A stretch of DNA of 64,000 nucleotides from NCBI GenBank assembly GCA_001029635.1, contig CP011209.1, positions 484,970 through 548,969 of the forward strand, given 5' to 3'. Shown here piece by piece: positions 15,879-46,250 of this stretch. The notes below the pieces were generated by a model. It had not been told where the DNA came from. It searched no databases and worked only from the letters and a program-made list of their open reading frames with translations. The position numbers were made by a program, and so were the translations under genes. Source of the stretch: Candidatus Wolfebacteria bacterium GW2011_GWB1_47_1 (lineage in GTDB: Bacteria; Patescibacteriota; Minisyncoccia; UBA6257; UBA9933). Within the stretch, counting starts at the first letter, position 1, and every line of letters starts with the position of its first letter.

Positions 15879-17597
15879 ATGGTCAATCAGGCACTTATTG
15901 ATGTGGTAAAAAATCAGCTTGCCGGCGGTATCGGTGAGCAAGAGATCCGGGAATTTCTTCGGCGACGAGGAACGAGTGACGATGAGGTTCAGGAAATATT
16001 TAAAGCACTCTCAGTACGTGTTCCTACGCTGAGTGAAATACCGGTTACCGAATCGGTTCCTGCCCTTCCAGAGCAATCATTGCCCGTTCCTGCTGCTCCA
16101 GAGATATCCGTTGCCCACGGTATCGAGCGAGAAATTCCGCCTTTACAGCCCAGTGCGCCGTTTGAGCCCCTTTCTTTGGAACCGGCTCCTGTACGGGAGG
16201 ATACTTCCTCGGGCATTGTGCTCCCTCCTGTGCTGAGTCGTGGGAAGCGGATCATACGCATCGGTTCCATTATCGCCTCCGTAGTCCTTGTTCTCGTAGG
16301 TGGGGCATATGCGTATACCGTTTATTTTGCATCACCAGAACAGATATTAGATCGGATGATCCTGCAAGTTCGAGACGTACGGGCTATGGCATTCGCTACC
16401 GAGATCAATGTGACGGCCAGTGGAGGGTCGTTGTTTGCAACGGCGGCATCTTCCACAAACCCTTTTGCGGGAATGCTTATGGGTCAGGAACAGCCGACGA
16501 AGTTGACTGTAACTTCCTCAGGTGCCTTTGATTTTCGCGATGAGGTGAGTCCGAAGGTTTCCATCTTATTCGAGGCCGATACGGATAAGTGGCCGTTGGG
16601 TGATTTTGCACTTGGAGCAGAATATCGGAATTTGGACAGAAAGAACTATGTCAAGGTCAACAACATTCCCGATCTTGGTTTTTTTAGCCTGAGCTTTTTA
16701 AAGAATAAATGGTTCGTCATCGAAGACAAAGAAGCAAAGACCCAATTAGGCGCTTCAACGGGGAGTTCTGAGACGGTCATCCCGGATATCACGCAGGAGC
16801 AACGGAATCAGTTGGCTGATGCGTGGGGTGATCATCGGTTCTTGACCGTCAACAAGCGTCTTTCGCCAGAGGAGATTGATGGTGTTGCCATGCATCATTT
16901 TTCGCTTGCTTTTGATAAGGAAAAATTTAAGGAATGGATTATTGTGACGGATGCGATCATGCAGAATGAGCCAACTGACGTAAGCGAGATGGATGAAACA
17001 CTTTCGTTTTTGAATGTTGATGCCATGGAGACATGGATTGGTAAGCGAGATTCGCTTCCGTATAAATACACAGCCCAGATCTCGCTTCGTGATAAGGTTG
17101 ACGCGAGTAGGATGACGACTATGAACATAGTCTTGACGGGAAAGAATTTTGGCAAGAATCAGGAGATTATAGCTCCTGATGGGGCGCAGTCATTTGAGGA
17201 AGTACTACAGGGTATTTTTGGACAGATGCTTGGGGCTGGCGCTCCGACGTCCGTACCGGCAACGCCACAGGCTCGTAATGATCAGCGAAGAAAGGATGTA
17301 ACGTTGATCGCCGACGCGATTAAAAAGAACGTCTCCGATAATGGCGGAACGTTTATGTGCGCTACCGGTCCGTTGCCTCAGAAGGCTACATTTCTCGGTG
17401 CAGCAGGATTTGGCATGAGCGGGTATGCCATTGAGTCTTGCCTCGTGCCTAAATACTTGCCGGCAATGCCAAAGGATCCTACTAAGGGTGGACTTGGTAT
17501 GAGTGGATATTCCGCATATTATGATTCAGTAACTAAGCGCATCACCGTGCGGGCACCGTATGCGGAAGAGGGATCTAAAATCACAATCACCAAGTAA
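15879..17597 (+). CDS. Membrane-anchored hypothetical protein: conserved about 45-aa N-terminal cytoplasmic domain, Pro-rich linker, TM, large extracytoplasmic domain ending in a pseudopilin (GspG)-like motif
   Basis: N-terminus LIDVVKNQLAGGIGEQEIREFLRRRGTSDDEVQEI is paralogous to the N-terminus of 17753..18085. C-terminal ARNDQRRKDVTLIADAIKKNVSDNGGTF resembles the ARDxQRxxD..I..AlE.Y..DNG.YP motif of type II/IV pilin-like proteins. Confidence 0.55.
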   Translation: MVNQALIDVVKNQLAGGIGEQEIREFLRRRGTSDDEVQEIFKALSVRVPTLSEIPVTESVPALPEQSLPVPAAPEISVAHGIEREIPPLQPSAPFEPLSLEPAPVREDTSSGIVLPPVLSRGKRIIRIGSIIASVVLVLVGGAYAYTVYFASPEQILDRMILQVRDVRAMAFATEINVTASGGSLFATAASSTNPFAGMLMGQEQPTKLTVTSSGAFDFRDEVSPKVSILFEADTDKWPLGDFALGAEYRNLDRKNYVKVNNIPDLGFFSLSFLKNKWFVIEDKEAKTQLGASTGSSETVIPDITQEQRNQLADAWGDHRFLTVNKRLSPEEIDGVAMHHFSLAFDKEKFKEWIIVTDAIMQNEPTDVSEMDETLSFLNVDAMETWIGKRDSLPYKYTAQISLRDKVDASRMTTMNIVLTGKNFGKNQEIIAPDGAQSFEEVLQGIFGQMLGAGAPTSVPATPQARNDQRRKDVTLIADAIKKNVSDNGGTFMCATGPLPQKATFLGAAGFGMSGYAIESCLVPKYLPAMPKDPTKGGLGMSGYSAYYDSVTKRITVRAPYAEEGSKITITK

Positions 17598-17718
17598 AAC
17601 GCATTAATTTTGTGAACTACTTTGTTGCGGGTCCCTGTTAATTCGGTCGGAGTACCGCTGTACGCCTTCCTCATTAACTTTCCCGCGTCGCGTATTTCAT
17701 TAAAATTCACGCGTTTTA
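17597..17718 (+). ncRNA. Structured intergenic element, copy A (candidate ncRNA or complex terminator family)
   Basis: Core TTGCGGGTCCC...GTAC-N4-GTAC...TTTCCCGCG shared with copies B-D. Outer stem aaaacgc/gcgtttt. Begins at the stop codon of the upstream gene. Confidence 0.5.
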
Positions 17719-17752
17719 TACTTATTCAAGTAATTCAAGGAGTATAAGATCA

Positions 17753-18085
17753 ATGGACAAGCAAAAACTTATTACAATCGCAAAGGATCAGCTTAAAGGA
17801 GGTATCGGAGAAGATCAAGTTCGGGAATTGTTGACGTATCGGGGAGTTGAAGCGAACGATGTTGCTGAAATTATGCAGGAGGTTTTGCGTGCAGAAACGC
17901 AGCCTGTTACAGCAGAGGCCGAAGATGTCGTCCAAAAAGCGGATATGGTAATTGCAGAACTTATCCCAGATGCGCCGACTCAGCCCGAATATATTAAAAA
18001 GGAGCGTAATATCCTCCTGTTATCCATCGCCGCATTATTCATCCTTTTGATTACGGGATCGGTCGTCTATTATTTTTATTTCTGA
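17753..18085 (+). CDS. Small membrane-anchored protein carrying the same N-terminal about 45-aa domain as 15879..17597
   Basis: MDKQKLITIAKDQLKGGIGEDQVRELLTYRGVEANDVAEIMQEV aligns with the N-terminus of the upstream 572-aa protein. C-terminal TM helix. Confidence 0.55.
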   Translation: MDKQKLITIAKDQLKGGIGEDQVRELLTYRGVEANDVAEIMQEVLRAETQPVTAEAEDVVQKADMVIAELIPDAPTQPEYIKKERNILLLSIAALFILLITGSVVYYFYF

Positions 18086-18086
18086 T

Positions 18087-18662
18087 ATGGAGCGTCGCGT
18101 ATTTATCATACATGGATGGGGTGCCGCCCCCGAGCGGGAGTGGTTCCCGTGGCTACGCGAGCAGCTTGAACATCACAATCTTGATGTCATCATTCCCGCG
18201 ATGCCTCATACGGAGCACCCTGTGATCGAAGAATGGGTTGCGATGCTGCGTACCGTTGCGGGAGCGCTTCGTCCTACGGATATCTTTGTCGGACATAGCG
18301 TCGGGTGTCAGGCCATCATGCGTTTTTTTGAACAAGAGAATGTATCCTCCGTTGCTGGGTTTATTTGTGTTGCCGGATGGTTTACCTTGCGAGGTGTTGA
18401 AACGGGAGAGGAGTGGGCGATTGCCAAGCCGTGGCTTGATACGCCGATCGATCTTGCGATGGTTAAACGCACTGCTGGTTCGATTACCGCAATCTTTTCC
18501 GAATCTGATCCGTATGTTGATCTTGCTATTAATCGAGATATGTTCGAGCAGCAACTGGGTGCACGGATTATCATCGAACATGATAAGGGGCATTTTAGCG
18601 AGGATAATGGCATCTATGAATTGCCAATCGTTCGGGATACTATTTTAACACTGATACAGTAA
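18087..18662 (+). CDS. Alpha/beta-hydrolase, RBBP9/YdeN-like serine hydrolase
   Basis: IIHGWGAAPEREWFPWL and nucleophile elbow VGHSVGC. About 190 aa, typical for this family. Confidence 0.65.
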   Translation: MERRVFIIHGWGAAPEREWFPWLREQLEHHNLDVIIPAMPHTEHPVIEEWVAMLRTVAGALRPTDIFVGHSVGCQAIMRFFEQENVSSVAGFICVAGWFTLRGVETGEEWAIAKPWLDTPIDLAMVKRTAGSITAIFSESDPYVDLAINRDMFEQQLGARIIIEHDKGHFSEDNGIYELPIVRDTILTLIQ

Positions 18663-18667
18663 ACCAT

Positions 18668-19354
18668 ATGAACAAGCCATTACGATTTGGGCACCGGGGA
18701 GCATCCGGTTATTTCCCGGAAAACACACTCGCAGCTTTTCAAAAGGCTATTGATCTTGGAGTTGATATGGTCGAATTGGATGTGCATCGGTGTAAGACGG
18801 GGGAGATCGTCGTGATGCATGATGACACGGTCGATCGGACTACGAACGGGTATGGGCGTGTCGCCGATCTTGCTCTGGACGCATTGCGAATGCTCGATGC
18901 CGGGCAGGGGGAGCGGGTCGTTACGCTCGAGGAAGTCCTTGATATGCTCGATCATCGGGTTGGAGCCGTTGTCGAGTTGAAAGAAGCGGAAGTCATCGAA
19001 CCAACCGCGGAGATCATCAATCGGTACATTTCTGAAAAGGGCTGGGCAGTCGACCAATTCTCAGTGACCGCATTTGATCATTATCTGTTGCGAACGTTTC
19101 ATAAATTGTGTCCACGAGTACGCCTGGGTGCGATCTTGGCCGGCAACCCTATCGGCTATGCGGAATTCGGACAGCGTCTTGGGGCCGCTTCGGTTAATAT
19201 GGCTCACCCATTTTTGACCCAGGAATTCGTATATGATGCCCATGAGCGTGGATTACAGGTGTTTGCCTGGCCTGTAGACGAGCCGCGGGATATCGAACGC
19301 ATGAAATCGATAGGCGTGGATGGGATTTTTTCCAATTTTCCTGATAGAATCTAA
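18668..19354 (+). CDS. Glycerophosphodiester phosphodiesterase
   Basis: FGHRGASGYFPENTLAAFQKAIDLGVDMVELDVHRCKTGEIVVMHDDT matches the GDPD catalytic motif pattern. Confidence 0.85.
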   Translation: MNKPLRFGHRGASGYFPENTLAAFQKAIDLGVDMVELDVHRCKTGEIVVMHDDTVDRTTNGYGRVADLALDALRMLDAGQGERVVTLEEVLDMLDHRVGAVVELKEAEVIEPTAEIINRYISEKGWAVDQFSVTAFDHYLLRTFHKLCPRVRLGAILAGNPIGYAEFGQRLGAASVNMAHPFLTQEFVYDAHERGLQVFAWPVDEPRDIERMKSIGVDGIFSNFPDRI

Positions 19355-19491
19355 GCCAGGTTTACCTTGTATTCGAAATTCGTCGCGTCCATCTATCTAC
19401 TGGCGGGCGAACGTAAAATATATCCGTTTTGCAGGGTGAATTCGTACTCTCGGGTTGACATTTTCTGGGTCTTCGGGTATCTTTAACTGAT

Positions 19492-19815
19492 ATGAAATTC
19501 GCAGTCATCGAAACAGGGGGAAAGCAATATAAGGTTTCCGCCGGACAAAAATTGAAGGTTGAGAAATTGGAAGTCGAGATCGGACAGCAGTTCGTCTTCG
19601 ACAAAGTGCTCCTCGTCGCCGATGAGCAGAAGGACAGCGCCGATGCGACCATCGGAGCTCCGTATGTCACTAACGCGAAGGTTGAGGCAACCGTGTTGAG
19701 CAAGGATCGCGACGACAAGAAGATCGTCTTCCGCTACCACAATAAGAACCGCTACCGAAAGTTTAAGACGCATAGGCAGCATTATACTGAGGTGGAAATT
19801 AACACCATTGGCTAA
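19492..19815 (+). CDS. rplU: 50S ribosomal protein L21
   Basis: MKFAVIETGGKQYKVSAGQKLKVEKLE canonical L21 N-terminus. About 110-nt 5' leader upstream with a TTGACA box at about 19465. Confidence 0.9.
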   Translation: MKFAVIETGGKQYKVSAGQKLKVEKLEVEIGQQFVFDKVLLVADEQKDSADATIGAPYVTNAKVEATVLSKDRDDKKIVFRYHNKNRYRKFKTHRQHYTEVEINTIG

Positions 19816-19940
19816 AATTCTTCGCCATTTTGCGAGCTGTTGTGTTGCGGGTCCCTGTTGGTTCGGTCGATGTACCAGTAAGTACATCCTCCTCCCCACC
19901 TTTCCCGCGCCTTACATCTCATCAAAATTGCAAACAATTT
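19816..19940 (+). ncRNA. Structured intergenic element, copy B
   Basis: Same core as A/C (ttgcgggtccctgttggttcggtcgatgtaccagtaagtac...tttcccgcgcc). Outer imperfect stem aaaattcttcgccattttg / caaaattgcaaacaatttt. Begins right after the rplU stop. Confidence 0.5.
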
Positions 19941-20026
19941 TCCAGAAAGAATCGTCGGATAAAAACCGGCGATTTTTTGTCGGTTGAAAGAAAAATTATA
20001 GCGAAAACGTAGTATACTGTATCTAT

Positions 20027-20617
20027 ATGATCGAGCATGGGCATTGTGCCGAAAAAACCGATGAGGAATTGGTCGCGCTTACTCTCCAAGACCGGGAAAT
20101 GTACGCGTGCCTGATTCGTCGATATGAAGCGCCGCTTGCGCGGTATGTTTGGCGCATCTCGGGTTATTCTGATGATGACATTGCCGATATTTTGCAAAAT
20201 GCGTTTATCAGCGCGTACCGTAATTTGAACGACTTTGATCCGTCGCTCAAGTTTTCTTCATGGTTGTATCGAATCGCACATAATGAAACGATATCTCAGC
20301 ATCGCAAGCGGCATGCCCGCCCGCAGACCATTGCAGTCGAGGAGGGAGATGATGTATTCGAGCTGCTTGCGTCCGAGGTTGATGTCGTACGTGATGCGGA
20401 TCGAAAGATGACTGCGCGCCGGATCCGCGAGGTGCTTGAAACAATGGATCCGAAGTATCGCGATGTGTTGGTGTTGAAGTTTCTTGAGGATAAGGATTAT
20501 CGTGAAATATCGGATATTCTTCAGAAGCCGATGGGCACCATTGCGACGCTTATCAATCGCGCGAAAAAACAGTTCCGAGAACGGGTTGAAGCAGGAGGGA
20601 TACTATTAACGAATTAA
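20027..20617 (+). CDS. ECF-type RNA polymerase sigma-70 family factor
   Basis: Region 2 (ILQNAFISAYRNLNDFDP...SWLYRIAHNETISQHRKR) and a region 4 HTH at the C-terminus. Confidence 0.8.
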   Translation: MIEHGHCAEKTDEELVALTLQDREMYACLIRRYEAPLARYVWRISGYSDDDIADILQNAFISAYRNLNDFDPSLKFSSWLYRIAHNETISQHRKRHARPQTIAVEEGDDVFELLASEVDVVRDADRKMTARRIREVLETMDPKYRDVLVLKFLEDKDYREISDILQKPMGTIATLINRAKKQFRERVEAGGILLTN

Positions 20618-21438
20618 TGATTATGAAAGATTTTTCTAAAGACATATTACATACCATAGAGGAGCGGGACATTGCGCCGTTGCCACGATGGATCTTTTTG
20701 ATGCGCCAAACCGCTTTGCTTGGCGGCTTTGTACTCTCGGTGTTAATCGGCGGAGTTTCTGTTTCCGTCATCTTGTTTGCATTAGGAGACATCGACCCGG
20801 GAGCGGAACGTATGATACGTATGCATCCCGGACCATTCTTGATTACGTATTTGCCGTATGTGTGGGTTTTAACTATGATCGCGTTTGGTATTATTGCGTA
20901 TTACGACATGCGCAGCATTAAAGGAGCGTATCGCTACCGCGCTGTCACAATCCTTAGTGCAAGCATTGTCGCGAGTATTATTGTCGGTGGCGTATTGCAT
21001 ACTGTTGGAGCGGGGCGTATTGCCGAGCGGCGATTTGCCGATGTAGTGCCGCAGTATCAAGCGTTTGAAACGCGCAAAATGCATCTTTGGATGCGTCCGG
21101 AGGATGGCATGCTTGCAGGCGTGATCGTCTCTGGATCGGCGACATCGACCCTTGTGTTGGAAGATTTTTCGGGAATACGATGGACTGTTGATGTTTCCGA
21201 TGCGGTGCAGCGAGGATTGATCTTAGGAGACTTTGGAGAGCGCGTGCGTGTGGCTGGTTCTCTTACTGGACCCGCGGTATTTCATGCGACCGATATATTC
21301 CCGTGGACCCGGCGTGGCTCTGTAATAAATCGAGAGCAAGGTATGATACGAGACGAAGTTTTTTCACGCCGATTTCCGGATGAATCTGGGCAACAAGGAA
21401 TGATGCTGCGTGAAAGAAATTTGCATCTTGCCCCGTAA
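20617..21438 (+). CDS. Putative anti-sigma factor / membrane protein, start overlaps the sigma gene stop (ATGA)
   Basis: Translationally coupled to the ECF sigma. Two to three TM helices after a short cytoplasmic N-terminus, the usual anti-sigma layout. Confidence 0.5.
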   Translation: MIMKDFSKDILHTIEERDIAPLPRWIFLMRQTALLGGFVLSVLIGGVSVSVILFALGDIDPGAERMIRMHPGPFLITYLPYVWVLTMIAFGIIAYYDMRSIKGAYRYRAVTILSASIVASIIVGGVLHTVGAGRIAERRFADVVPQYQAFETRKMHLWMRPEDGMLAGVIVSGSATSTLVLEDFSGIRWTVDVSDAVQRGLILGDFGERVRVAGSLTGPAVFHATDIFPWTRRGSVINREQGMIRDEVFSRRFPDESGQQGMMLRERNLHLAP

Positions 21439-21526
21439 TAATATATGAAGGCCTTGCTGTTTGATCTGCAACCGTGCACATTGTTTGGTCCTGTAGCTTT
21501 GCCTGAAATATAAAACAGTTATTATT

Positions 21527-21964
21527 ATGAACAAAAAAATTACAGTAGGAATTATTGGATTGGCTGTTGTTGCGGGCGTCGCGGGAATCGCGGCGAGCAC
21601 GACGTATGCCAAAGGTGGTATGATGAATGGGCGCGGTATGGGTAATGCTACATCAACCGCCGCCATTGCGGCGCAGCGGGAGGTTATGGATGCTCATCGC
21701 GAAACGGTTGATAAGGCCATTCAGGCGGGAGATTATACGGCCTGGAAGGCTGCTATGAGCACGCTTCCCGGCAACGGACGAGGATCTGATATGACTAGCG
21801 TCATCACCGAAGCTAATTTTCCTCGACTCGTAGAAATGCACAAGCTTATGACCCAGGCCGATGCCATCCGGCAGGAGCTTGGCTTGAACGAGCGGGGAGG
21901 TATGGGAATGCATGGGCGCGGACAAGGTAGGGGCATGCATATTCAAGTTACTAGCACCCAATAA
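21527..21964 (+). CDS. Secreted Gly/Met/His-rich protein (signal peptide plus GMGMHGRGQGRGMH-type motifs)
   Basis: N-terminal signal peptide MNKKITVGIIGLAVVAGVAGIAAS. Repeated M/G/H clusters reminiscent of Cu(I)-binding Met motifs. Confidence 0.45.
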   Translation: MNKKITVGIIGLAVVAGVAGIAASTTYAKGGMMNGRGMGNATSTAAIAAQREVMDAHRETVDKAIQAGDYTAWKAAMSTLPGNGRGSDMTSVITEANFPRLVEMHKLMTQADAIRQELGLNERGGMGMHGRGQGRGMHIQVTSTQ

Positions 21965-21981
21965 AAATTTATTACCAATAT

Positions 21982-22015
21982 AAAAACACGGCGCGTGAGG
22001 CGCCGTGTTTTTTTG
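21982..22015 (+). terminator. Rho-independent terminator aaaaacacggcgcgtgaggcgccgtgtttttttg (copy 1 of an identical pair)
   Basis: Perfect palindrome cacggcgc-gtgag-gcgccgtg flanked by A- and T-runs. An identical 34-mer sits at 22772-22805. Confidence 0.8.
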
Positions 22016-22017
22016 TT

Positions 22018-22758
22018 ATGGATATGATATATAATTCAACTATGAAAATTGTTAAGAAAATCGTATTAGCCTTGCGTTTTATTTTATTAGACCAGGTATT
22101 TTCGATGAAAATAAAAAAGATGAGCGGGGGAGATTATTTTATTGCCGAAACAATTCCATATCAGTGCCAATTTGCCACTCCTGAGTTGGTAGCGGATATA
22201 TTGGAAAAACGTATAAAAGGAGAAGACGACCCTAATTGGAATAATTTCGGGTTTCCTGATAGAGAAGAGTATGCATATTGGAGTTGGCGGGCGTGTGGGG
22301 TTGCCTGTCTTAAAATGGTGGTTGATTTTTATGCGTTGGCGGGGAAAACCATTGGCGAACTAACGTATGAAGGAGTTAAACTTGGCGGTTATGACGTGAG
22401 TGCTGATAGAGGGTGGTTTTACAAGCCCTTACTTAATCAAGCTCAGAATTATGGATTGACTGGATATACCGTTTCGCATTTCGGCATCGCTTCCATTTGT
22501 GAGCTGATGAAGAAAAAGCGTTTCTTCGTTGCTTCTGTGAATCCATCTTTGATCCGCTTTGATAAGACCGGTGTTAATGAAGAGCCGGGCGGGCACCTTG
22601 TTTTAGTGATTGGCTGCAGGGTAAAGAGTGGGGCTATCGAAGGCTTCTTTATTCATAACCCATCGGGCAAGCTAGATGAAACGAGAAGAAAAACATTTAT
22701 ACCTATAGATGTTTTTAATAAGGCATATAGTAAAAAAGGAATTGCCATCTGGAGATAA
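22018..22758 (+). CDS. Papain-like cysteine peptidase, C39-like (Peptidase_C39_2-type) domain protein. AT-rich cassette gene.
   Basis: YWSWRACGVACLKMV (candidate catalytic Cys) and GGHLVLVIGC (candidate His). Markedly lower GC than neighbours. Bracketed by identical 34-bp terminator copies. Confidence 0.45.
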   Translation: MDMIYNSTMKIVKKIVLALRFILLDQVFSMKIKKMSGGDYFIAETIPYQCQFATPELVADILEKRIKGEDDPNWNNFGFPDREEYAYWSWRACGVACLKMVVDFYALAGKTIGELTYEGVKLGGYDVSADRGWFYKPLLNQAQNYGLTGYTVSHFGIASICELMKKKRFFVASVNPSLIRFDKTGVNEEPGGHLVLVIGCRVKSGAIEGFFIHNPSGKLDETRRKTFIPIDVFNKAYSKKGIAIWR

Positions 22759-22771
22759 GAGGCGCTATATA

Positions 22772-22805
22772 AAAAACACGGCGCGTGAGGCGCCGTGTTT
22801 TTTTG
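22772..22805. terminator. Identical second copy of the 34-bp palindromic terminator. Bidirectional, also serves recR on the minus strand.
   Basis: 100% identical to 21982-22015. The recR stop codon abuts it at 22807. Confidence 0.8.
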
Positions 22806-22806
22806 C

Positions 22807-23406
22807 TTAAATGCGTCGCTCTAGGGCTTGTTCGAGCGTGTCCTCGTCGGCAAACTCTATTTCGCCACCCGTGGGAATACCTCGGCCAAGGCGAGTGAAT
22901 TTCTTTGCGTAGCCCTCGAGTTCATTTTTGATGACCATGGCATTGAGATCGCCGTATGTCGTCGGGTTGGTTGCGATAATTACTTCGTCGGCCTGGCCGT
23001 CCAGCTTTTTCCCGATAATGTTCTTGAGGTGGCTCATGCGCAACTTTTGGGTCGCATCGAGGATGCCACCCTTGGTCAGCTCACCAATGATCAGATAGCG
23101 ACCATTAAACCTCCTTGTTCGTTCGATAGACATGAGGTCGGTTTCTTTCTCAACTATCATGATGATATTCTGCACTCGGTGTGGATTTTCGCAGATACCA
23201 CAGAGGCTTCCTTCGTTGGAATGAATGAAGAAACAATTAGTACATACCTTGATGGAGGCGAGGTCGATGATGCCCCGTGCCGCTTCGTTAATCTTACTTT
23301 TACCGCTTCCGATCAAAAAGAAGGCGAGCCGTGTCGCTTGCCGTGGTCCAATACCTGGCAATTTTGCAAATACGTCGATGAAGTTGCGGATTTGTTGTGG
23401 GAGCAT
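22807..23406 (-). CDS. recR: Recombination protein RecR
   Basis: N-terminal helix-hairpin-helix (LPGIGPRQATRLAFFL), Cys4 zinc finger CTNCFFIHSNEGSLCGIC, Toprim domain. Confidence 0.9.
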   Translation of the reverse strand: MLPQQIRNFIDVFAKLPGIGPRQATRLAFFLIGSGKSKINEAARGIIDLASIKVCTNCFFIHSNEGSLCGICENPHRVQNIIMIVEKETDLMSIERTRRFNGRYLIIGELTKGGILDATQKLRMSHLKNIIGKKLDGQADEVIIATNPTTYGDLNAMVIKNELEGYAKKFTRLGRGIPTGGEIEFADEDTLEQALERRI

Positions 23407-23513
23407 AAGGAATGGGGTTGGAGATTAGAGGTGAGAGGTATGAAAATAAAAATGCGTCGCCTGAGCGGCTCCCTGATTTTTGCCTCGTACCCCCGGTCTC
23501 ATATCTCGTAATA

Positions 23514-36511: not shown

Positions 36512-36512
36512 G

Positions 36513-36642
36513 TATAAAAACCGTTCGCTTCGCGAATTACTGCGTTGCGGGTCCCCGGCGCTTCGGTCGTCGTACCAGTAAGTACGCTTTCCTTGCGTCG
36601 CTCCCGCGCCTCGTACTTCATCAAAGTGAACGGTTTTTATAC
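36513..36642 (+). ncRNA. Structured intergenic element, copy C
   Basis: Core ttgcgggtcccc...gtaccagtaagtac...ctcccgcgcc. Perfect 14-bp outer stem tataaaaaccgttc / gaacggtttttata. Starts 2 nt after the ppsA stop. Confidence 0.55.
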
Positions 36643-37063: not shown

Positions 37064-37621
37064 ATGAAGAATGACACAATGAATCAGGCTAGTGAACAGT
37101 TTAAAACAATGGCAGCCCGGCTCAAGCGGGGCGATATTGGCGCAGGCGAGGAGGCATTCACTTATTTTAGCCCGCTTTTGTACCGCTTCTTTCTGGCGCG
37201 TCTTACTCATCGGACTATCGCCGAAGATCTGACGCAGGACGTATTTTTTAAGATTATTGCGAAGATTGATACATTTGACGAAGAGAAGGGTAATTTCCCC
37301 GGGTGGATCTGGCAGATTGCGCGCAATACGCTCATCGATCATTATCGGGATAAAAAGGAGATCGCGTTCGCGGATGCCGGCGAGGGCATTGAGGAGATCG
37401 CCTCCGCTGTCGATGATGTCGATCAACGTATGCGCGTGCAGAATATTATGCTTGCGGTGCATCAGCTGAGCGAGGAAGAGCAGGAATTGTTCTCGTTGCG
37501 GTATGTATCAGATGTTTCCTATAAGGATATGAGCGGCATGTTGGGCAGATCGGAATCGGCGTTGCGCGTCGCGGTGCACCGGCTCAACATTAAAGTAAAA
37601 GACATTATCATCGAATCATGA
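37064..37621 (+). CDS. ECF-type RNA polymerase sigma-70 family factor
   Basis: Region 2 (DLTQDVFFKIIAKIDTFDEEKGNFPGWIWQIARNTLIDHYRDKKE) and region 4 (ELFSLRYVSDVSYKDMSGMLGRSESALRVAVHRL). Confidence 0.8.
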   Translation: MKNDTMNQASEQFKTMAARLKRGDIGAGEEAFTYFSPLLYRFFLARLTHRTIAEDLTQDVFFKIIAKIDTFDEEKGNFPGWIWQIARNTLIDHYRDKKEIAFADAGEGIEEIASAVDDVDQRMRVQNIMLAVHQLSEEEQELFSLRYVSDVSYKDMSGMLGRSESALRVAVHRLNIKVKDIIIES

Positions 37622-38502: not shown

Positions 38503-38616
38503 TCTATGTATAAAAACACACACCTATGGTGTGCGTTTTGTTGACGGTTGAGTATCAACTATGGTACATACAAAGAAGCACTATTCAATAATCAAGGTAC
38601 TGCAAGGAGGCTCCTG

Positions 38617-39009
38617 ATGTCTTTTAAGAAAGTGAAGAACAGCTCGCATTTAGATGAATTCCGAAGGCGGGCGCAATTGAAATTGATGCCGCATGCTCCG
38701 ATGATCAGGCTGCATCGAGAGTCGGCGCGATCCCAGTACGGGCATTTGCCCACCATAGAATCGCTCGCAGTCTTGACCCCTCTGGGGCATTACAAGACCA
38801 AGGCACTGGAGCTTGGATGGGACCCGCAGATCATCATGTGTGCCGTCGCTGCTTATTTGACTCAGCATGCCAACAATCACGCGTTCCATAACCAGAACGA
38901 CCAGCCGATCGGCAGTCGTATGTATGAGGCAATGCGGGAAATTATCGGCGAGCGATGCTGCGGGAAGAGGGATCAGATGCGTATCTTCAACGAAACGTTT
39001 ATACTCTAA
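38617..39009 (+). CDS. Hypothetical protein
   Basis: ATG 38617 is preceded by RBS aaggagg (8-nt spacer). The earlier ORF-track start lacks an RBS. Confidence 0.45.
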   Translation: MSFKKVKNSSHLDEFRRRAQLKLMPHAPMIRLHRESARSQYGHLPTIESLAVLTPLGHYKTKALELGWDPQIIMCAVAAYLTQHANNHAFHNQNDQPIGSRMYEAMREIIGERCCGKRDQMRIFNETFIL

Positions 39010-39026
39010 CCTAGGAGGAGAGTATT

Positions 39027-39482
39027 ATGTTCAAGCGCAATAATCAGTTCGTCATTTCGCAATCCGATCGACCGGTAGGGTTGTATCGTTTAGTGCGAGA
39101 GCAGTCGCACGCTGTTCTTATTCCCACTGTTCCGCTCGAGTACGTCGTGGCGGATCTTCATCGGCTCATTCGTGAAAACGACGTTGCTCATTTGCAGCTG
39201 ACGTCGTTCGGGGCCCTTCTGGAGTCGATCAAAGCCGTACCGGTAGCACTCGACATTATTGCGTACAAGCTGTTTCTTTATGTCGATACCGATATGAGCT
39301 TCCACCAGTTTTTGGCACACTACGCCCGCGTTCCCGACCGGTGTCCCGCTTGTCAGCGCGCGATCGACCGCTTCGTCATTGATGAGCGGCTCGAGCACAT
39401 CATTGCATGTCAGCGACGTAGCATTCGCTCGGTTGTTGTGGCAGTTGCCAAGGGGTTGGAGCGGCCGCGATCGTCGACCTGA
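39027..39482 (+). CDS. Hypothetical protein with a CPACQ zinc-knuckle-like motif
   Basis: RBS ctaggaggagag precedes the ATG. Co-directional with the previous gene, 17 bp away. Followed by a strong terminator. Confidence 0.45.
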   Translation: MFKRNNQFVISQSDRPVGLYRLVREQSHAVLIPTVPLEYVVADLHRLIRENDVAHLQLTSFGALLESIKAVPVALDIIAYKLFLYVDTDMSFHQFLAHYARVPDRCPACQRAIDRFVIDERLEHIIACQRRSIRSVVVAVAKGLERPRSST

Positions 39483-39485
39483 GAT

Positions 39486-39522
39486 TGTCCGTAGGGGGGG
39501 TGCTATACACCCCCCTTTTTGT
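39486..39522 (+). terminator. Rho-independent terminator (gtagggggggtgctatacacccccctttttg)
   Basis: Long G/C stem plus T-run. Confidence 0.7.
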
Positions 39523-39562
39523 ATCTTGGGATAAAGTGCGATATGCTGGAGCATAGCGTTTT

Positions 39563-40714
39563 ATGTCTACGGAGAAGAAAGAACGGGTGAATATTCTATC
39601 GATCGAAACGAGCTGTGACGAAACGGCGCTTTCTTTTGTTACGGCAAGCGGGGGATTGGAAAAGCCGACATTTACGGTTCATGGCGACGTGGTCGCTTCG
39701 CAGATCAAATTGCATCAGCCATATGGAGGGGTTGTTCCGGCACTCGCAAAGCGAGCGCATTTGGAGAACTTGCCGCTATTGTTTGCTCAAGTTGTTCGAG
39801 GGGGTGTCACCCCGGCGGAGGCCGGGGTCCAGGAGGGTTTAGATTCCGGCCTCCGCCGGAATGACAACAGTGAGATATCGGCGCAAGAAGTTGAGCAGTT
39901 TATGGAGCAATTGGACTTTATCACGGTGACTGTTGGTCCCGGATTAGAGCCTGCATTGTGGGCGGGTATCGAGTTTGCAAAGCAGCTTGCGGAGAAGCAT
40001 AGTAAGCCGCTTATCGGAACAAACCATTTGGAAGGTCATTTGTATAGTATCCTTGTCTCTACGAAGCAATACGATGTTGCATCGATCTTTCCCGCAATCG
40101 CATTGATTGTAAGTGGAGGGCACACGTTGTTGCTCAAGATGGATGATTTGACGACATTTAAGAAGATTGGCGAGACCGTAGATGATGCCGTTGGCGAAGC
40201 GTTCGATAAGGTCGCGCGCATGATCGACTTGCCGTATCCGGGCGGACCGGAAATAGAACGATTAGCAAAGGAGGGTAACGCGATGGCGATCGATTTCCCG
40301 CGTCCGATGATCGGGCATAAAAATTATAACTTCAGTTTTTCAGGGTTAAAGACATCGGTATTGTATCATTTGCGTGACCTTGCAAAGGCGGGTAAGGAAA
40401 TCCCGAAGGCGGATGTCGCTGCAAGCTTTCAAAAAGCGGCTTCTGATGTGTTAATCAAAAAGACGTTGCGCGCTGCCGAAGAATTTGACGCCAAATCGAT
40501 CATGATCTCGGGCGGCGTGTCCGCGAACCGCACCTTGCGTGCATCGTTTGCCGATGCGATCGAAAAGAAATTCAAAGCGAAAAAGGATAAGCCGATCCTT
40601 ATTGTCAGTGAATTTTCTACCGACAATGCACTGATGATCGCGGCTTCGGGATACATCGATTATCTGAGAGGGAAGAAGTATAAGTTGGAGGCCAACGGTA
40701 ATCTTAATCTGTGA
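39563..40714 (+). CDS. tsaD: tRNA N6-adenosine threonylcarbamoyltransferase TsaD (Kae1/Gcp family) with an about 25-aa palindromic insertion
   Basis: LSIETSCDETALSFV, HLEGHLYS and GGVSAN motifs. Insertion GGVTPAEAGVQEGLDSGLRRND between the first His region and the VTVGPGL block. Confidence 0.85.
   Translation: MSTEKKERVNILSIETSCDETALSFVTASGGLEKPTFTVHGDVVASQIKLHQPYGGVVPALAKRAHLENLPLLFAQVVRGGVTPAEAGVQEGLDSGLRRNDNSEISAQEVEQFMEQLDFITVTVGPGLEPALWAGIEFAKQLAEKHSKPLIGTNHLEGHLYSILVSTKQYDVASIFPAIALIVSGGHTLLLKMDDLTTFKKIGETVDDAVGEAFDKVARMIDLPYPGGPEIERLAKEGNAMAIDFPRPMIGHKNYNFSFSGLKTSVLYHLRDLAKAGKEIPKADVAASFQKAASDVLIKKTLRAAEEFDAKSIMISGGVSANRTLRASFADAIEKKFKAKKDKPILIVSEFSTDNALMIAASGYIDYLRGKKYKLEANGNLNL
39798..39868. 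repeat. REP-like palindromic unit inserted in-frame inside tsaD
   Basis: gtcaccccggcggaggccgg ... ccggcctccgccggaatgacaa. The arms are 14-bp perfect inverted repeats and share the GTCAYYCCSGCGGAGGCSGGRATGACAA consensus with 5529-5560. Local GC spike. Confidence 0.6.
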
Positions 40715-40761
40715 GCATGTACGTCTTGCGATGACGTACATGGCTATGAAATGAAACATAC

Positions 40762-41835
40762 ATGTTTTCTTATCTACGACATTTTGATTGGAAGTTGAAC
40801 GGCGCGGTTGCGCTTCTTTCGCTTGCGAGTCTTGTTGGTTTGGCGAGTATTAGTATGGATTTGTTCTGGAAACAGCTGCTATTTATCGTAATCGGCCTTG
40901 TGCTTATGCTGTTCGTTACCTATTTCGACTGGCGGTCATTTGCAAATTATCGAGGTGTTATTTTGGGCGTGTATGGAGTGGCTATTTTTTTGCTGATATT
41001 AACGCTTATTATCGCTCCTGAAATTCGCGGGAATAAGGCGTGGATCCCTATCGGACCATTTCAATTCCAGGCATCGGTGTTTGCGAATCTTGCGCTCATC
41101 ATCGTCCTGGCGAGTTTTTTCCGTAAAGGGCATCGGAGTATTGCTCATCTTTCTACCTTGGCGAAATCATTTATATATTTCGCCATTCCTGCCGGGTTGG
41201 TCTATCTGCAACCTGACCTCGGATCTGTATTACTTATGTTCTCGGTATGGTTCGGATTTGTACTGGTTTCGGGTATTCGATGGCGTCATTTGGTCGCCGC
41301 GTTCATGATCTTCGCCGTTATTGGCGCTCTGGGCTGGGCGGTATTTCTTAAGCCGTATCAGAAGGATCGCATCGTGGGCGTATTCTTCCCTGACCGTGAT
41401 GTTTTAGGGGTTAATTATAATGTGATTCAGGCAAAAATCGCCATCGGATCGGCGGGATTGTTTGGAAAAGGGTTTGGGCAAGGTACGCAGGTGCAACTTG
41501 GGTTTTTGCCTGAAGCACATACGGATTTTATCTTTTCTGGCATTACCGAAGAATGGGGATTGATCACCGGGTTTCTCCTAATCGGTGCATTTTTCTGGAT
41601 AATCGTGCGTATTGTTGCTATCGGACTTGTTGAGCGGAATAGCTTCAGTCAGTTTATTTGTCTAGGGATAGCACTGTTTCTGTTGGCAAACTTTGTATTC
41701 AATACCGGCTCAAATATCGGACTCGTTCCGGTTATCGGTGTCCCGTATCCGTTCTTGAGCTATGGCGGATCCCATATCCTCGCAGAATTCATCTTATTGG
41801 GTATGATCCAATCGATCAAATTACGAAACGCATGA
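40762..41835 (+). CDS. FtsW/RodA/SpoVE (SEDS) family peptidoglycan glycosyltransferase
   Basis: 10-TM layout. PEAHTDFIFSGITEEWGLITG and YGGSHIL motifs typical of SEDS proteins. Confidence 0.85.
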   Translation: MFSYLRHFDWKLNGAVALLSLASLVGLASISMDLFWKQLLFIVIGLVLMLFVTYFDWRSFANYRGVILGVYGVAIFLLILTLIIAPEIRGNKAWIPIGPFQFQASVFANLALIIVLASFFRKGHRSIAHLSTLAKSFIYFAIPAGLVYLQPDLGSVLLMFSVWFGFVLVSGIRWRHLVAAFMIFAVIGALGWAVFLKPYQKDRIVGVFFPDRDVLGVNYNVIQAKIAIGSAGLFGKGFGQGTQVQLGFLPEAHTDFIFSGITEEWGLITGFLLIGAFFWIIVRIVAIGLVERNSFSQFICLGIALFLLANFVFNTGSNIGLVPVIGVPYPFLSYGGSHILAEFILLGMIQSIKLRNA

Positions 41836-42869
41836 ATATATTATTTACATTACTAAAGCGGTTTTTTTCCGTAAGTCTCCTTTTTTTCGGTATCATGGTC
41901 ATATTGCTCGCTTGGGTTCTTTTTGCTCGCGAGCTTAAGCCTATGGCTATGGATGAGATTACGGAATATACCATTGAATACACTGTTCGTCCGGGCATGG
42001 GGCTTCGTGACATTGCGAAAGAATTGGAAGACCAGCACATTATCCGATCTAAGTATGCATTTCAAACGTATTCAGTCCTGAGGCAGAAGGCGAATGGATT
42101 CCAGCCGGGAATCTATACGGTAGGACCTGCCCAATCCGTCTCTGAGATCGTCTCTCTATTAACCAAGGGCCCGCTTGAGGTTGAGATACTCATCACGCCA
42201 GGTATGACTATGATCGAGATTGAAGACATAATGGTCGTTTCGAATGTACTTGAAGAAGGGGATCTAACTAGGTTTCCCGTAGACATGATCCGGGAGCAAT
42301 ATCCTTTTCTTGGTAATGCGCAGATCCTCGAAGGATTCCTTTTCCCGGACACCTATCGATTCTATCCACATTCCGACCCTTTGATCGTCGTGGGCAAGAT
42401 TTTAGACCATTTTGAGTCTCAGGTAGGACCCCTCTTGACAGACTTGCGTAATTCTAAAAATAATGATACTATTCATTGGCTTATCCTCGCATCAATATTA
42501 GAGAAGGAAGTGACAAACAAAAAAGAGGCCCAAACAGTCGCCGGTATCTTTGAGAAACGGTTGGCAATAGGCATGCCGCTGCAGGTCGACGCATCGATTA
42601 TCTATGCGAAATGCAGACGGTTTATTAGTTGCCCCACATTGACCCGAGCTGATTTTAAGATTGAGTCTCCGTATAACACCTACTTACACAAGGGGTTACC
42701 ACCTACGCCAATTACCAACCCCGGACTTGATGCGATAAGCGCGGCACGTTCACCAGTTCGTTCGAATTACCTGTATTACTTGTCTGATCCTCAGACCAAG
42801 AAAACCATATTCTCGAAATCGTTTGACGAACACAATGCGAACCGAACTAAATACTTACTCAACCAATAA
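41832..42869 (+). CDS. mltG: Endolytic murein transglycosylase MltG (YceG-like)
   Basis: N-terminal TM, YceG domain with GLPPTPITNPGLDAI. Start ATG 41832 overlaps the ftsW stop. The ORF-track start 41658 is inside ftsW. Confidence 0.8.
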   Translation: MNILFTLLKRFFSVSLLFFGIMVILLAWVLFARELKPMAMDEITEYTIEYTVRPGMGLRDIAKELEDQHIIRSKYAFQTYSVLRQKANGFQPGIYTVGPAQSVSEIVSLLTKGPLEVEILITPGMTMIEIEDIMVVSNVLEEGDLTRFPVDMIREQYPFLGNAQILEGFLFPDTYRFYPHSDPLIVVGKILDHFESQVGPLLTDLRNSKNNDTIHWLILASILEKEVTNKKEAQTVAGIFEKRLAIGMPLQVDASIIYAKCRRFISCPTLTRADFKIESPYNTYLHKGLPPTPITNPGLDAISAARSPVRSNYLYYLSDPQTKKTIFSKSFDEHNANRTKYLLNQ

Positions 42870-42905
42870 CTCGTAAAAGCCGTCGAATAACGGTTATTTG
42901 TTTTT

Positions 42906-45900
42906 ATGGCAAAACAGCTTCCAACAAAAGTTTTTTCAAAACACCCCGGCTCGTTCATCGAGCAGCCGTATCTTGCCACACTCCAGGCCGAATCTTGGGA
43001 CTGGTTTGTGAAGAAAGGTCTGCGCGAACTCTTTGACGAGATTTCTCCGATCAAGGATTACACCGGCAATGAGGTAGAACTGCACTTTCTTGATTATCAC
43101 TTCGATGAACCGCGTTACGACGAGGAAACAACCCGCTTGAAGGGATTGACCTACGAAGCCCCGTTGCGCGTCAATGTGAAACTCATCAATAAGGTCTTGA
43201 ACGACGAAAAGGAACAGGAAGTATACCTGGGAGATTTCCCGATCATGACTAGTCGCCACACGTTTATCATGAACGGAGTTGAGCGCGTTATGGTTTCTCA
43301 ATTGATCCGCTCTAGCGGCGTGTACTTTAGCGCAAGCATGTTGCGGGGAAAGAAATTGTTTGGTGCGAAGATTATCCCGAACCGTGGAAGCTGGTTAGAA
43401 TTCGAAACCGAGATCGACGGCTTTATTGGCGTAAAGATTGATCGACATCGTAAGGCTCCGGTCACCGAACTGCTGCGCGTATTTGCCAACCAGGTAAATA
43501 TTACGTTAACCAACGAGAAGATCCTCGAAATGTTTGCCGACATCGACAAGGGTGCCGTGAAGCATATCGAAGCGACTTTAAAGAAGGATGCGGCAAAAAC
43601 CGCCTCTGAATCATATGTAGAAATTTACAAGCGGTTGCGACCGGGCGATTTGGCGACTCCGGAAAACGCACAGAGCTTGATTGACTCCATGTTTCAGCGC
43701 GACGACCGTTATAGCTTGTCCCGCGTAGGACGCTTTAAGGTGAATCAGCGCTTGGAATTGAAGTCTAAAGAATCGACACTGCTCGACCTCGAGGATGTCG
43801 TGCAGATTGTACGCGAGCTTATTCGCTTGAACAACGACAAGCACGCGGAGCCTGATGATATCGATCACTTGGGCAACCGACGCATCCGCGCCGTCGGTGA
43901 ATTGTTGCAGGGCCGTCTGTATGTTGGTTTTGCGCGCATGCGCCGCGCCATCCAGGACAAGATTTCGACCGCAGAAGCGGATGTTGTCTTAACTCCGGTG
44001 CAGCTTATCAACGGACGACCGCTTGTCGCCGTTATGAAGGAATTTTTGACATCTTCCCAGCTGTCGCAATTTATGGACCAGGTAAACCCGTTGGCTGAGA
44101 TCGAGCACAAGCGTCGTTTGTCTTTGCTTGGACCGGGTGGATTAACCCGTGAGCACGCAGGCTTCGAAGTCCGCGATGTTCACCCGTCCCACTATGGCCG
44201 CATCTGTCCGATTGAAACTCCTGAAGGACAATCCATCGGTTTAGTTAACCACCTCTCCAACTATTCTCGCATCAATGAATTTGGGTTTTTGGAGACGCCG
44301 TATGCAAAGGTAAAAAATGGCAAAGTTACCAACGAGATCGAATGGATGAACGCCTTGGAAGAAACCAAGTACAAGATCGCACACGGCGGAAACCGTCTTG
44401 ATGCGAATAATAGAATTGTAGACGACGTCGTCGGCGCACGTATCAAGGGCGAGCCGCGCACCTGTGATCGCGAGGAAGTAGACTTCATGGACGTTTCAAA
44501 CGACCAAACCGTCGCCGCTGCGACCGCACTTATTCCATTTTTGGAACATAACCCGGCAAACCGCGCGCTCATGGGAGCGAATATGCAACGCCAGGCCGTA
44601 CCGCCGGTACGTCCGCAGGCTCCGCTTGTCGGAACCGGCATCGAAGACAAAATTGCTCGCGATTCCGCGCGCGCCGTTGTCGCACCGGAAGATGGCGAGA
44701 TCATAGAAGTCGATTCGAACCATATCGTATTGAAGACCAAGAGCGAATTGAAGCATTTTGAATTGACCAAGTTCCAGCGTTCCAATAAATATACAAACAT
44801 TTCCCAACACCCAATCATTAACAAAGGTGACAAGGTTAAGAAGGGTGATGTACTCGCCGATGGCCCATCCATGGATCATGGAACATTGGCACTCGGACAG
44901 AATATGCGAGTTGCATTTATGTCCTGGGAAGGGCGCAACTTCGAGGACGCCATTATTTTGTCTGATCGTGTTGTGAAGAATGATATCTTCTCATCCATCC
45001 AGATCAAGGACTTTGTGTGCGATGTTCGCGACACAAAGCTTGGACCGGAAATTACCACCAATGACATTCCGAACGTGTCGGAAGAGAAGTTAAGAAATCT
45101 TGATGAGGAGGGAATCATCCGCATCGGAGCCGAAGTGCGCGCAGGAGATATCCTAGTCGGAAAGGTTTCCCCGAAAGGCGAGACTGAATTGACCGCAGAA
45201 GAAAAGCTGCTCCGTGCTATCTTTGAAGAAAAGGCGCGCGACGTAAAGGATACGTCTTTGTCCGTCCCGCACGGTGAATCCGGACGGGTTATCGGCATCA
45301 AAATCTTCTCCCGTGATCGCGGCGACAAACTTGAGCCGGGTGTTATTAAGCGCATTCAGATCGAACTTGCGGAACTTCGCAAGGTTCGCGCCGGAGATAA
45401 GCTTGCCGGACGTTATGGAAACAAGGGTGTTATCTCGAAGATCTGCCCGGCAGAAGACATGCCGTACTTGGCAGACGGAACCCCGGTTGATGTTATCTTG
45501 AACCCATTGGGCGTGCCGTCCCGCATGAACTTGGGACAGGTATTGGAAGTACATCTTGGTCTTGCGGCAAATAAGCTTGGCTATCGCGCAGTGACGCCGG
45601 TATTCGCGAGTGCAACCGAAGATGATGTACGAGCTGAATTGAAGAAAGCCGGTTATCCGGAAGATGGAAAATTGGAATTGTATGATGGACGAACGGGCGA
45701 GAAATTTGTCAGCCCGGTGACCGTCGGATTTATGTATATGATCAAGCTTGACCACATGGTCGAAGACAAGATCCATATGCGCGCGACCGGTCCGTACTCA
45801 TTAATCACACAACAACCGCTCGGAGGAAAGGCGCAGTTCGGCGGACAACGTTTTGGAGAAATGGAAGTGTGGGCCTTGGAAGGATACGGCGCAGCGTATA

Positions 45901-46124
45901 CCTTGCAAGAAATGCTCACAATCAAATCCGATGACGTATTCGGACGTGCCGCTACCTATGAAAGCATTATTCGAGGTGAGAAGATTAAGAGTCCAAACAT
46001 CCCGTCCGCATTCAACGTGCTTGTGAACGAAATTAAATCGCTCGGTATCTCTGTTGAGAAGGAGGAGGTCGAACCGGAAGAAGGCGAGGAATTACACGCA
46101 ACCGCCTCGCGAATCGAAGAATAA
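42906..46124 (+). CDS. rpoB: DNA-directed RNA polymerase subunit beta
   Basis: Canonical rpoB blocks throughout (GNRRIR..., [33 protein letters not shown]). 1072 aa, short but complete. Confidence 0.95.
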
Positions 46125-46127
46125 GCG

Positions 46128-46250
46128 ATAACGAATAGGGGTCGGCAAACTGCTGCGTTACGGGGCCCCGTTGGCTTGGTTGAAGTGCTACTTGCACATC
46201 TTCCTCGCCAACTTCCCCCGTACTTTGCATTTCATCCAACCCTATCCGTT
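46128..46250 (+). ncRNA. Structured intergenic element, copy D (rpoB-rpoC spacer). Diverged copy with compensatory stem changes.
   Basis: ttacggggcccc...gtgc-tactt-gcac...cttcccccgta. Both conserved stems are kept by paired substitutions relative to A-C. Outer stem aacgaataggggtcggcaaactgc / gcatttcatccaaccctatccgtt. Confidence 0.5.

Follow-up and report, generated by a model that had tools for sequence, protein, structure and literature searches.

A dispersed hairpin repeat family located directly after stop codons in Candidatus Wolfebacteria

Four copies of the hairpin and their neighbouring genes

We analysed a stretch of 64,000 nucleotides (nt) from Candidatus Wolfebacteria bacterium GW2011_GWB1_47_1 (contig CP011209.1, positions 484,970 to 548,969 of the forward strand), which we refer to as the window, and which contains four copies of a long hairpin element, A to D, all on the + strand. 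An earlier note, made from the letters of the sequence, had described structured elements at these four places. The hairpin of copy A (17594..17719; core as defined by a covariance model 17606-17706, 98.8 bits) takes the TAA stop of a 572-amino-acid open reading frame (ORF) into its base, and its 3' arm is followed by TTTT; no Pfam match was obtained for the ORF. Copy B (19809..19944; core 19826-19928, 107.5 bits) starts with the TAA stop of rplU, the gene for ribosomal protein L21. A separate, canonical intrinsic terminator on the + strand, read from the sequence as ATCGTCGG-ATAAAAA-CCGGCGAT-TTTTTT, was located downstream of this copy at 19951..19979, which places copy B inside the 3' untranslated region (UTR) of rplU. 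Copy C was located after ppsA (36512..36642; core 36526-36627, 90.9 bits), and its outer stem, ATAAAAACCGTTCGC/GTGAACGGTTTTTAT, has the A-tract/stem/T-tract layout of a terminator. Copy D fills the spacer between rpoB and rpoC (46126..46254; core 46139-46241, 95.3 bits), upstream of the rpoC ATG at 46288. The Pfam assignments of the neighbouring genes, namely L21, a phosphoenolpyruvate (PEP) synthase/pyruvate phosphate dikinase (PPDK)-type enzyme, rpoB upstream of copy D and rpoC downstream of it, agreed with those proposed earlier.

The degenerate core pattern TTRCGGGKCCC-N6-YTYGGTYG had four matches in the window, which were exactly copies A to D and all on the + strand, with 0.19 matches expected by chance and none of 100 shuffled sequences reaching four. 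A repeat search of the window returned the same four copies as its top family. When the covariance model was run over the whole window with the filters off, copies A to D scored 91 to 108 bits, and the remaining matches were their own reverse-strand echoes at 19 to 27 bits, followed by matches at about 12 bits with E-values of about 1. This gap in the scores indicates four copies in 64 kb, about one per 16 kb, without degenerate extras. The sequence itself, the core pattern, the repeat search and the covariance model thus confirmed the four positions. We also searched the window and all other loci for variants consisting of the basal module alone (see below), and obtained the known copies and nothing else.

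Anatomy of the hairpin

The family has a conserved core of about 100 nt and reaches about 125 to 135 nt when the locus-specific outer stem is included. Every intact copy folded into one long imperfect hairpin of 45 to 54 bp, with z-scores relative to shuffled sequences of -4.6 to -5.8 for copies A to D and of -3 to -9 for all intact copies. The outermost layer is the outer stem, which adds 9 to 19 pairs beyond the core; as had been noted, it differs in sequence from copy to copy and is self-complementary in each. Inside it lies the basal module, UUUUGCGAAYURCUG...GCCUUGYAUUUCAUCAAAA, followed inward by a GCGGG/CCCGC helix, a variable helix of 4 to 6 bp, a segment of GG/CC and CG/CG pairs around a pyrimidine 2x2 internal loop (GGUCG versus CUUCC), and a GUAC/GUAC stem closed by an unconserved apical loop of 4 to 7 nt. 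The paired substitutions previously reported for copy D, GTTACGGGG...CCCCGTAC and GTGC/GCAC, are real. The unpaired nucleotides of the internal loops were among the best-conserved positions. Conservation was highest at the centre of the element and faded gradually outward without a sharp boundary, and in every copy the upstream TAA stop was located within the stem base or 0 to 8 nt from it.

A coding function was considered and rejected. The distances from the stop codon to the core were 27, 29, 33 and 33 nt and hence do not share one reading frame, and on the reverse strand, the ATGAAA complementary to the conserved TTTCAT opens frames that end after 8 codons in copy A and after 15 codons in copy D.

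Copies in other genomes

Searches with rpoB, ppsA and L21 assigned the window to Candidatus Wolfebacteria. Further copies were sought by one exact-pattern scan each of a genome and a metagenome collection, followed by covariance-model searches of the fetched contigs, which are designated here by L-numbers. The strict 26-nt scan pattern fits only 7 of the 11 known copies, and the range of the family is therefore underestimated. Seven further distinct intact copies were identified. Three of these were orthologs of copies in the window: copy I in the rpoB-rpoC spacer of L013 (ortholog of D), copy J1 after ppsA in L015 (ortholog of C), and copy K after rplU in L024-L026 (ortholog of B). Copy E was located after the gene for a transketolase C-terminal protein in Wolfebacteria GW2011_GWE2_44_13, while copies G and H belonged to the same 7-kb locus, where they were located after rpmG (L33) and between rpsB (S2) and tsf, respectively.

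Copy F (L002 338-450, + strand, 78 bits) was found in an mraZ-rsmH spacer, in antisense orientation and abutting the rsmH start codon. The contig has a GC content of 61% and encodes SpoVR, DUF444, MraZ and RsmH, the SpoVR protein being about 55% identical to alphaproteobacterial homologues. Judging from this gene content and identity, the contig probably derives from a proteobacterium-like organism outside the Candidate Phyla Radiation (CPR), which suggests either a transfer across phyla or a family that is wider than the strict search pattern could reveal.

Covariation and selection on the fold

To study the evolution of the fold, we used a model-fitted alignment of the 11 distinct intact copies (A to D and the seven copies from elsewhere). 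Standard base pairs accounted for 94.4% of the cells, compared to 82.9% in shuffled alignments, none of 500 of which reached the observed value, and 19 of the 31 core pairs contained changes on both sides. When the pairing partners were slid by 1 to 3 columns as a control, pairing fell to 34% to 50%, with at most four double-changed pairs. A MAFFT alignment that had not been fitted to the model yielded, with RNAalifold, the same hairpin through the outer stem, with 45 pairs of which 32 were double-changed. The copies were star-like in their relationships, with pairwise identities of 58% to 78% and no near-identical pair, so that shared ancestry inflates the covariation counts less than usual.

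The three orthologous pairs allowed us to examine the fold at fixed loci. Double compensatory substitutions were observed at 4 base pairs in C/J1, 9 in D/I and 7 in B/K, that is 20 in total, and the number of pairs for which one of the two copies was unpaired was 3, 3 and 4, respectively. The orthologous cores were 66% to 78% identical, and the identities at fourfold degenerate sites were 0.52 for C/J1, 0.55 for D/I and 0.36-0.59 for B/K, indicating that synonymous sites are near saturation. That 20 double compensatory changes have accumulated despite this divergence shows that the fold and part of the sequence are under purifying selection at fixed loci, and the structure is thus under selection in place. 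The earlier proposal of a real and selected fold, made from four copies, thereby holds with 11 copies in the pairing statistics, the slid controls, the independent RNAalifold prediction and the orthologous pairs.

The further argument that conservation of pairing speaks against a dispersed or selfish repeat does not follow. Conserved pairing does not separate a functional RNA from a dispersed repeat, since the signature is shared by mobile repeats that are transcribed, for example bcr1 (PMC3184786).

Presence, loss and replacement at orthologous sites

After rpoB, the element was present in the window (D) and in L013 (I). In the equally closely related L008, the rpoB-rpoC spacer contained a different palindromic repeat. 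The spacer of L009 4569-4606, identical to L014 4134-4171, is only 38 nt long and lacks the element, but has kept ATTCATCCAACC, which agrees with the 3' end of copy D at 11/11 positions and looks like the scar of a deletion that took the rest of the element. The element was likewise absent from the rpoB-rpoC spacers of 22 to 49 nt in L010-L012. As a side observation, rpoC starts without a Shine-Dalgarno sequence, and CCTATG at its start is common to four lineages though the rest of the spacer has turned over (ACCCTATG at 46280-46290 in the window, L013 4324-4334 and L008 7507-7517; ATCCTATG at L009 4599-4609).

After ppsA, the element was present in the window (C) and in L015 (J1), and absent in L010, L011 and L016-L018, of which L018 had no spacer at all and L017 contained other hairpins. 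The L015 spacer contained three elements in tandem. The first, J1, was intact; the second, J2 (L015 12477-12565), was degenerate, with an internal deletion, and has lost the ability to fold (z = -1.0); the third, J3 (12600-12775), is an expanded variant of 175 nt, which has kept the basal module and carries two extra hairpins in its apical part. J2 and J3 are each followed by their own T-run.

A second palindromic repeat family was identified at 5531-5606 and 49945-49970 in the window, L008 7369-7482 and L017 12528-12636. Its sequence is TGTCATTCCCGC-N-GCGGGAATGACA ... AAATAGATTCCTC ... GGGAATGACA, also seen as TGTCATTCC...GGAATGACA, and its first hairpin conforms to ATTCCC-N8-GGGAAT. The niches of this family are those of the main element, namely positions after stop codons, the spacer between rpoB and rpoC in L008 and the spacer after ppsA in L017. 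It was also noted that a different hairpin of 73 nt follows ppsA at L017 12474-12546, in which a perfect 17-bp outer stem (GCAAAATGCCCATGTGG) encloses an AGGAGGA/TCCTCCT hairpin. Long hairpins at the ppsA site therefore seem to have been replaced rather than simply lost.

After rplU, the window (B) and L024 (K) carry the element with recognisably homologous outer stems and share the downstream terminator, which is kept in L019 as well. L019-L023 lack the whole hairpin but have kept the terminator. A comparison of the filled site in the window and L024 with the empty site in L019 showed an indel that extends from the stop codon to ...AATTT and is not flanked by a direct repeat; the unit gained or lost was thus the complete hairpin, without target duplication. 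Since the window was closer to L019 than to L024 in three of the five shared proteins, loss in the L019 lineage is the simpler history at this site. The copy after the 572-amino-acid ORF was found in the window only and was absent from the compared relatives. At the rpoB, ppsA and rplU sites, association with the orthologous gene was therefore not conserved across lineages in the manner of a structured cis-regulatory RNA tied to one gene family.

Orientation, transcript context and T-runs

The orientation of the element is well defined, since the covariance model scored the copies at 78 to 112 bits on the + strand and at 20 to 29 bits on the reverse strand. Seven of the eight independent sites were co-oriented with the upstream gene (binomial P about 0.035), and four of the eight follow rpoB or the genes for L21, S2 or L33. 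Copies B, K and E were located between a stop codon and a canonical terminator, copies D and I inside rpoB-rpoC, and copy H inside rpsB-tsf. This gene context places the + strand version of the element in transcripts. The co-orientation of copies A to D with their upstream genes had been recorded before and is correct, but it carries little weight within the window, because nearly all genes there are on the + strand and the GC skew is positive throughout.

A short T-run directly after the outer stem had been ascribed to all four copies. We found it in A (TTTT), C (TTTTT) and, in weak form, B (TTTT), but not in D. Among the other copies, T-runs follow the outer stems of G, H (6 T), J1 (8 T), J2 and J3, with a range of 4 to 8 T over all copies that have one, and are lacking in I and E as in D. 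The outer stems of C, G, H and J1 resemble the ordinary A-tract/stem/T-tract terminators of the genome; a simple terminator scan did not call the copies, the loop being over the limit of the scan. The pattern is as expected for a hairpin fitted to its transcriptional context, acting as a terminator where operons end and as a 3' hairpin without termination inside them.

Comparison with known elements

A search of the whole window against Rfam 15 at the gathering threshold returned six tRNAs and nothing else, and for copies B, C and D, E-values of up to 10 added chance matches to microRNA and small RNA families far below threshold. A search of L001, L002 and L006 returned tRNAs only. The absence of a match to any known RNA family, which had been stated from the sequence alone, is thus borne out at both gathering and permissive thresholds. 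Comparisons by eye of the conserved motifs with tRNA T-arms, signal recognition particle RNA, group II intron domain V and k-turns failed, and none of these was returned by Rfam. No match was obtained by blastn against 50,697 phage and 72,556 plasmid records. A distant-mode blastn search of 5,426 complete E. coli genomes was equally negative and gave no homology to the enterobacterial repetitive intergenic consensus (ERIC) and repetitive extragenic palindromic (REP) elements. One pattern match in IMG/VR was a chance match inside a coding region. A full-text search of the literature yielded no account of an element of this kind from CPR bacteria. The family is thus previously undescribed and is best filed among the dispersed intergenic hairpin repeats that are carried in transcripts.

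Three groups of such repeats offer the closest parallels. SPRITE of S. pneumoniae is a dispersed repeat of about 105 nt with a long duplex and A-run/T-run ends that is enriched at the 3' ends of coding sequences; target-site duplication has not been established for it, no matching insertion sequence is known, it clusters with other repeat families, and it has been proposed to be a co-opted terminator (PMC3049150). The element described here resembles SPRITE in its dispersal at the 3' ends of coding sequences, its A/T-run ends and the lack of an established duplication. However, the AT-rich SPRITE has a loose fold that comprises an 18-bp duplex and a U-rich tail, whereas the present element is a tight hairpin of 45 to 54 bp with a GC-rich conserved core, variable ends and strong covariation, of which some copies lie in operons without a T-run; no sequence relationship between the two is known. 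The bcr1 repeat of the Bacillus cereus group, of about 150 bp, is dispersed, intergenic and transcribed, its distribution is not conserved between strains, and compensatory changes keep its fold (PMC3184786, reviewing Okstad 2004 and Klevan 2007). These features are shared with our element, but bcr1 has 5-bp flanking direct repeats and a cruciform-like fold of two hairpins, unlike the single hairpin without duplication observed here. The ERIC elements or intergenic repeat units (IRU), the REP elements, bacterial interspersed mosaic elements (BIME) and REPINs are imperfect palindromes in transcribed intergenic regions, often after stop codons, and stabilisation of the upstream mRNA is among their known effects (PMC3116915). 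The likeness to ERIC and REP elements lies in the imperfect palindrome and its location in transcribed intergenic regions just after stop codons. REP elements differ in being about 35 nt long, best conserved at the palindrome, present in hundreds of copies per genome and linked to RAYT, none of which was seen here. Instead of GC-rich palindromes of 20 to 40 nt in inverted doublets and hundreds of near-identical copies, as in REP elements and REPINs, we found a single core of about 100 nt in four copies per 64 kb.

MITEs, or miniature inverted-repeat transposable elements, have conserved terminal inverted repeats and target-site duplications, whereas the outer arms differed completely between non-orthologous copies and no duplication was seen at site B. 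No transposase domain was found in 40 ORFs of the window. The A-tract, stem and T-run of several copies recall the ordinary intrinsic terminators of the genome, but the hairpin is 5 to 10 times longer, its core sequence is conserved from locus to locus, and D, I and E lack the T-run. Like integron attC sites, the elements are located directly after stop codons, are co-oriented with the upstream gene and have a structure that is better conserved than the sequence. An attC site is, however, conserved at the stem base (R''/R'), follows mobile cassettes and needs an integrase, whereas here the core is conserved and the upstream genes are housekeeping genes. An attC assignment was rejected since the stem bases are variable and A/T-rich without RYYYAAC...GTTRRRY, and no integrase was found in the window. 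What sets the element apart is the conserved centre with free-running ends, the strict placement at stop codons and the selection on the fold in place in a very small genome.

Interpretation of the family

The explanation that we favour, and to which we give about even credence, is that the elements constitute a new dispersed, orientation-defined hairpin repeat family of Candidatus Wolfebacteria, which is co-transcribed with the upstream gene and acts in cis as an RNA module at mRNA 3' ends. The role at the RNA level is what we infer from the gene context. In this reading, the family multiplied to many intergenic sites long ago. Its copies are now found in a 3' UTR or in a spacer between cistrons, immediately behind a TAA stop, and are transcribed together with the gene upstream; the fold is held by selection at individual loci, and any single copy is free to be lost. 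Copies with a T-run (A, C, G, H and J1) could serve as oversized intrinsic terminators. In operons (rpoB-rpoC and rpsB-tsf), or ahead of a separate terminator (B, K and E), the hairpin might instead shield the upstream cistron against 3' exonucleases or provide a double-strand processing site. Terminating ribosomes must open the stem, since it includes the stop codon or has it at its base.

A more specific version, which we put forward as tentative, is that the element, rather than being a passive repeat, has been selected by the host as an RNA module peculiar to this bacterial group, in which the conserved internal loops bind a dedicated protein or nuclease, and which sets the 3' ends, the stability or the operon stoichiometry of core expression mRNAs (rpoB, L21, S2, L33, ppsA and transketolase). 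If so, an ultra-small CPR genome would possess a shared device for post-transcriptional control.

Several observations weigh against a module that acts as RNA. G·U pairs were equally frequent on the two strands (35 versus 34 in the whole hairpins), and the corresponding G·U and A·C counts in the core (17 versus 6) are uninformative, as 10 of the 17 came from a single column. The reverse strand folded slightly better in 9 of the 11 copies, and a single-stranded DNA hairpin would fit equally well. Since the G·U counts show no preference for the + strand, it is only the context that speaks for RNA rather than single-stranded DNA. The window, furthermore, is one leading-strand stretch, in which gene orientation is inseparable from the direction of replication, and copy F is antisense to mraZ-rsmH in a non-CPR contig. 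The element is also dispensable, being absent at the orthologous sites of relatives with 89% to 92% identical flanking proteins. Finally, conserved sequences in the internal loops would be unnecessary for a simple exonuclease block or terminator.

An alternative that we consider possible although rather unlikely is a mobile element that is purely selfish and non-autonomous, like MITEs, REPINs or PATEs, and is mobilised in trans as a single-stranded DNA hairpin, for example by a HUH/RAYT-like transposase, without gain to the host. The fold and the loop nucleotides would then be conserved because the enzyme needs them. Multiple dispersed, star-like copies with 58% to 78% identity, their presence or absence at orthologous sites, and the second repeat family in the same rpoB-rpoC and ppsA spacers of relatives are all consistent with such an element, as are the tandem array with degenerate and expanded copies in one spacer, the single copy of opposite orientation in the proteobacterium-like contig, the strand-symmetric use of G·U pairs, and the lack of target-site duplication in filled versus empty sites, as with HUH-type elements. 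Yet selection for mobility cannot hold pairing at a fixed locus, where the three orthologous pairs have acquired their 20 double compensatory changes. The ends are the least conserved part, the opposite of MITEs with terminal inverted repeats and of REPINs, no two copies are so nearly identical as to indicate recent transposition, site B is better explained by loss in the L019 lineage than by gain, and no transposase domain was found in 40 ORFs of the window. The earlier conclusion of a functional RNA rather than a selfish repeat is thus upheld as regards the selected fold, but not as regards the dispersal, given the losses and replacement, the tandem, degenerate and expanded copies, the star-like kinship and the antisense copy. 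A distinctly improbable alternative is that the core of about 100 nt is itself the element and inserts into the loops of pre-existing intrinsic terminators, with the outer stems being host terminator stems. Mobile elements are known to insert into hairpin loops, as exemplified by IS1397 in the palindromic units of E. coli, and C, G, H and J1 without their cores would be near-perfect A-tract/stem/T-tract palindromes like ordinary terminators. The indel at site B nevertheless spans the whole hairpin with its outer stem, and the ordinary terminator is intact downstream in the window, L024 and L019; the outer stems of D, I and E lack a T-run, and conservation fades gradually from the core rather than at a sharp boundary.

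It is highly improbable that the elements give rise to trans-acting small RNAs from 3' UTRs, of which the C-rich unpaired motifs (GUCCC and CUUCCUC) would pair with the Shine-Dalgarno regions of target mRNAs. The pyrimidine-rich loop motifs are conserved in all copies, the elements are located at mRNA 3' ends, some with a terminator-like end of their own, and C-rich seeds of this type are known from the staphylococcal Rsa RNAs. The motifs are, however, placed in small internal loops of a long stable helix rather than in accessible loops, both the length and the sequence of the apical loop are variable, and the copies within operons have no 3' end of their own. Least probable of all is a signal at the DNA level, for instance a cruciform or a site bound by a protein that serves replication, segregation, recombination or DNA uptake, including an attC-like site of integrons. 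The strand symmetry of the pairing statistics would agree with this, as would a position after stop codons combined with a structure conserved over sequence, as in attC sites. The conserved part is the centre rather than the stem base, however, RYYYAAC/GTTRRRY core sites are absent from the ends, the genes upstream have core housekeeping functions rather than being cassettes, the window encodes neither an integrase nor a recombinase, and about one copy per 16 kb is far too sparse for uptake signals.

The genomes of CPR bacteria (Patescibacteria) are extremely compact, and almost nothing is known of their non-coding RNAs or repeats. It is unlikely that an element of about 125 nt is neutral filler when it survives in such a genome and has kept its fold while synonymous sites diverged nearly to saturation. 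If the co-transcribed module sets mRNA 3' ends or stability, it would be one of the earliest known examples of a lineage-specific RNA control element in these organisms. If the family is instead a mobile hairpin element, streamlined genomes of episymbionts still carry and tolerate such elements, and the one copy from a proteobacterium-like genome would then suggest that DNA is exchanged between phyla.

Other features of the window

A gene-poor stretch of 1.1 kb follows rpoC at 49870-51013, where relatives continue straight to rpsF. It contains a terminator, a repeat of the second family, a long near-perfect hairpin (50066-50120) and small minus-strand ORFs, as well as a perfect TTGACA-18-TATAAT promoter on the minus strand at 50563-50534. 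Two identical terminators of 34 nt (AAAAACACGGCGCGTGAGGCGCCGTGTTTTTTTG), at 21982-22015 and 22772-22805, flank a Peptidase_C39-like ORF at 22018-22758. An exact direct repeat of 43 nt, at 10121-10163 and 11134-11176 with a spacing of 1013 nt, brackets an ORF at 10355-11110 for which no Pfam match was obtained; partial copies are located nearby, and the repeat pair may be a duplication or mark the boundaries of an insertion. Finally, a short tandem or degenerate array of GTATGTATGTGTATATACGTACGCATGTATGT units was observed at 63372-63532.

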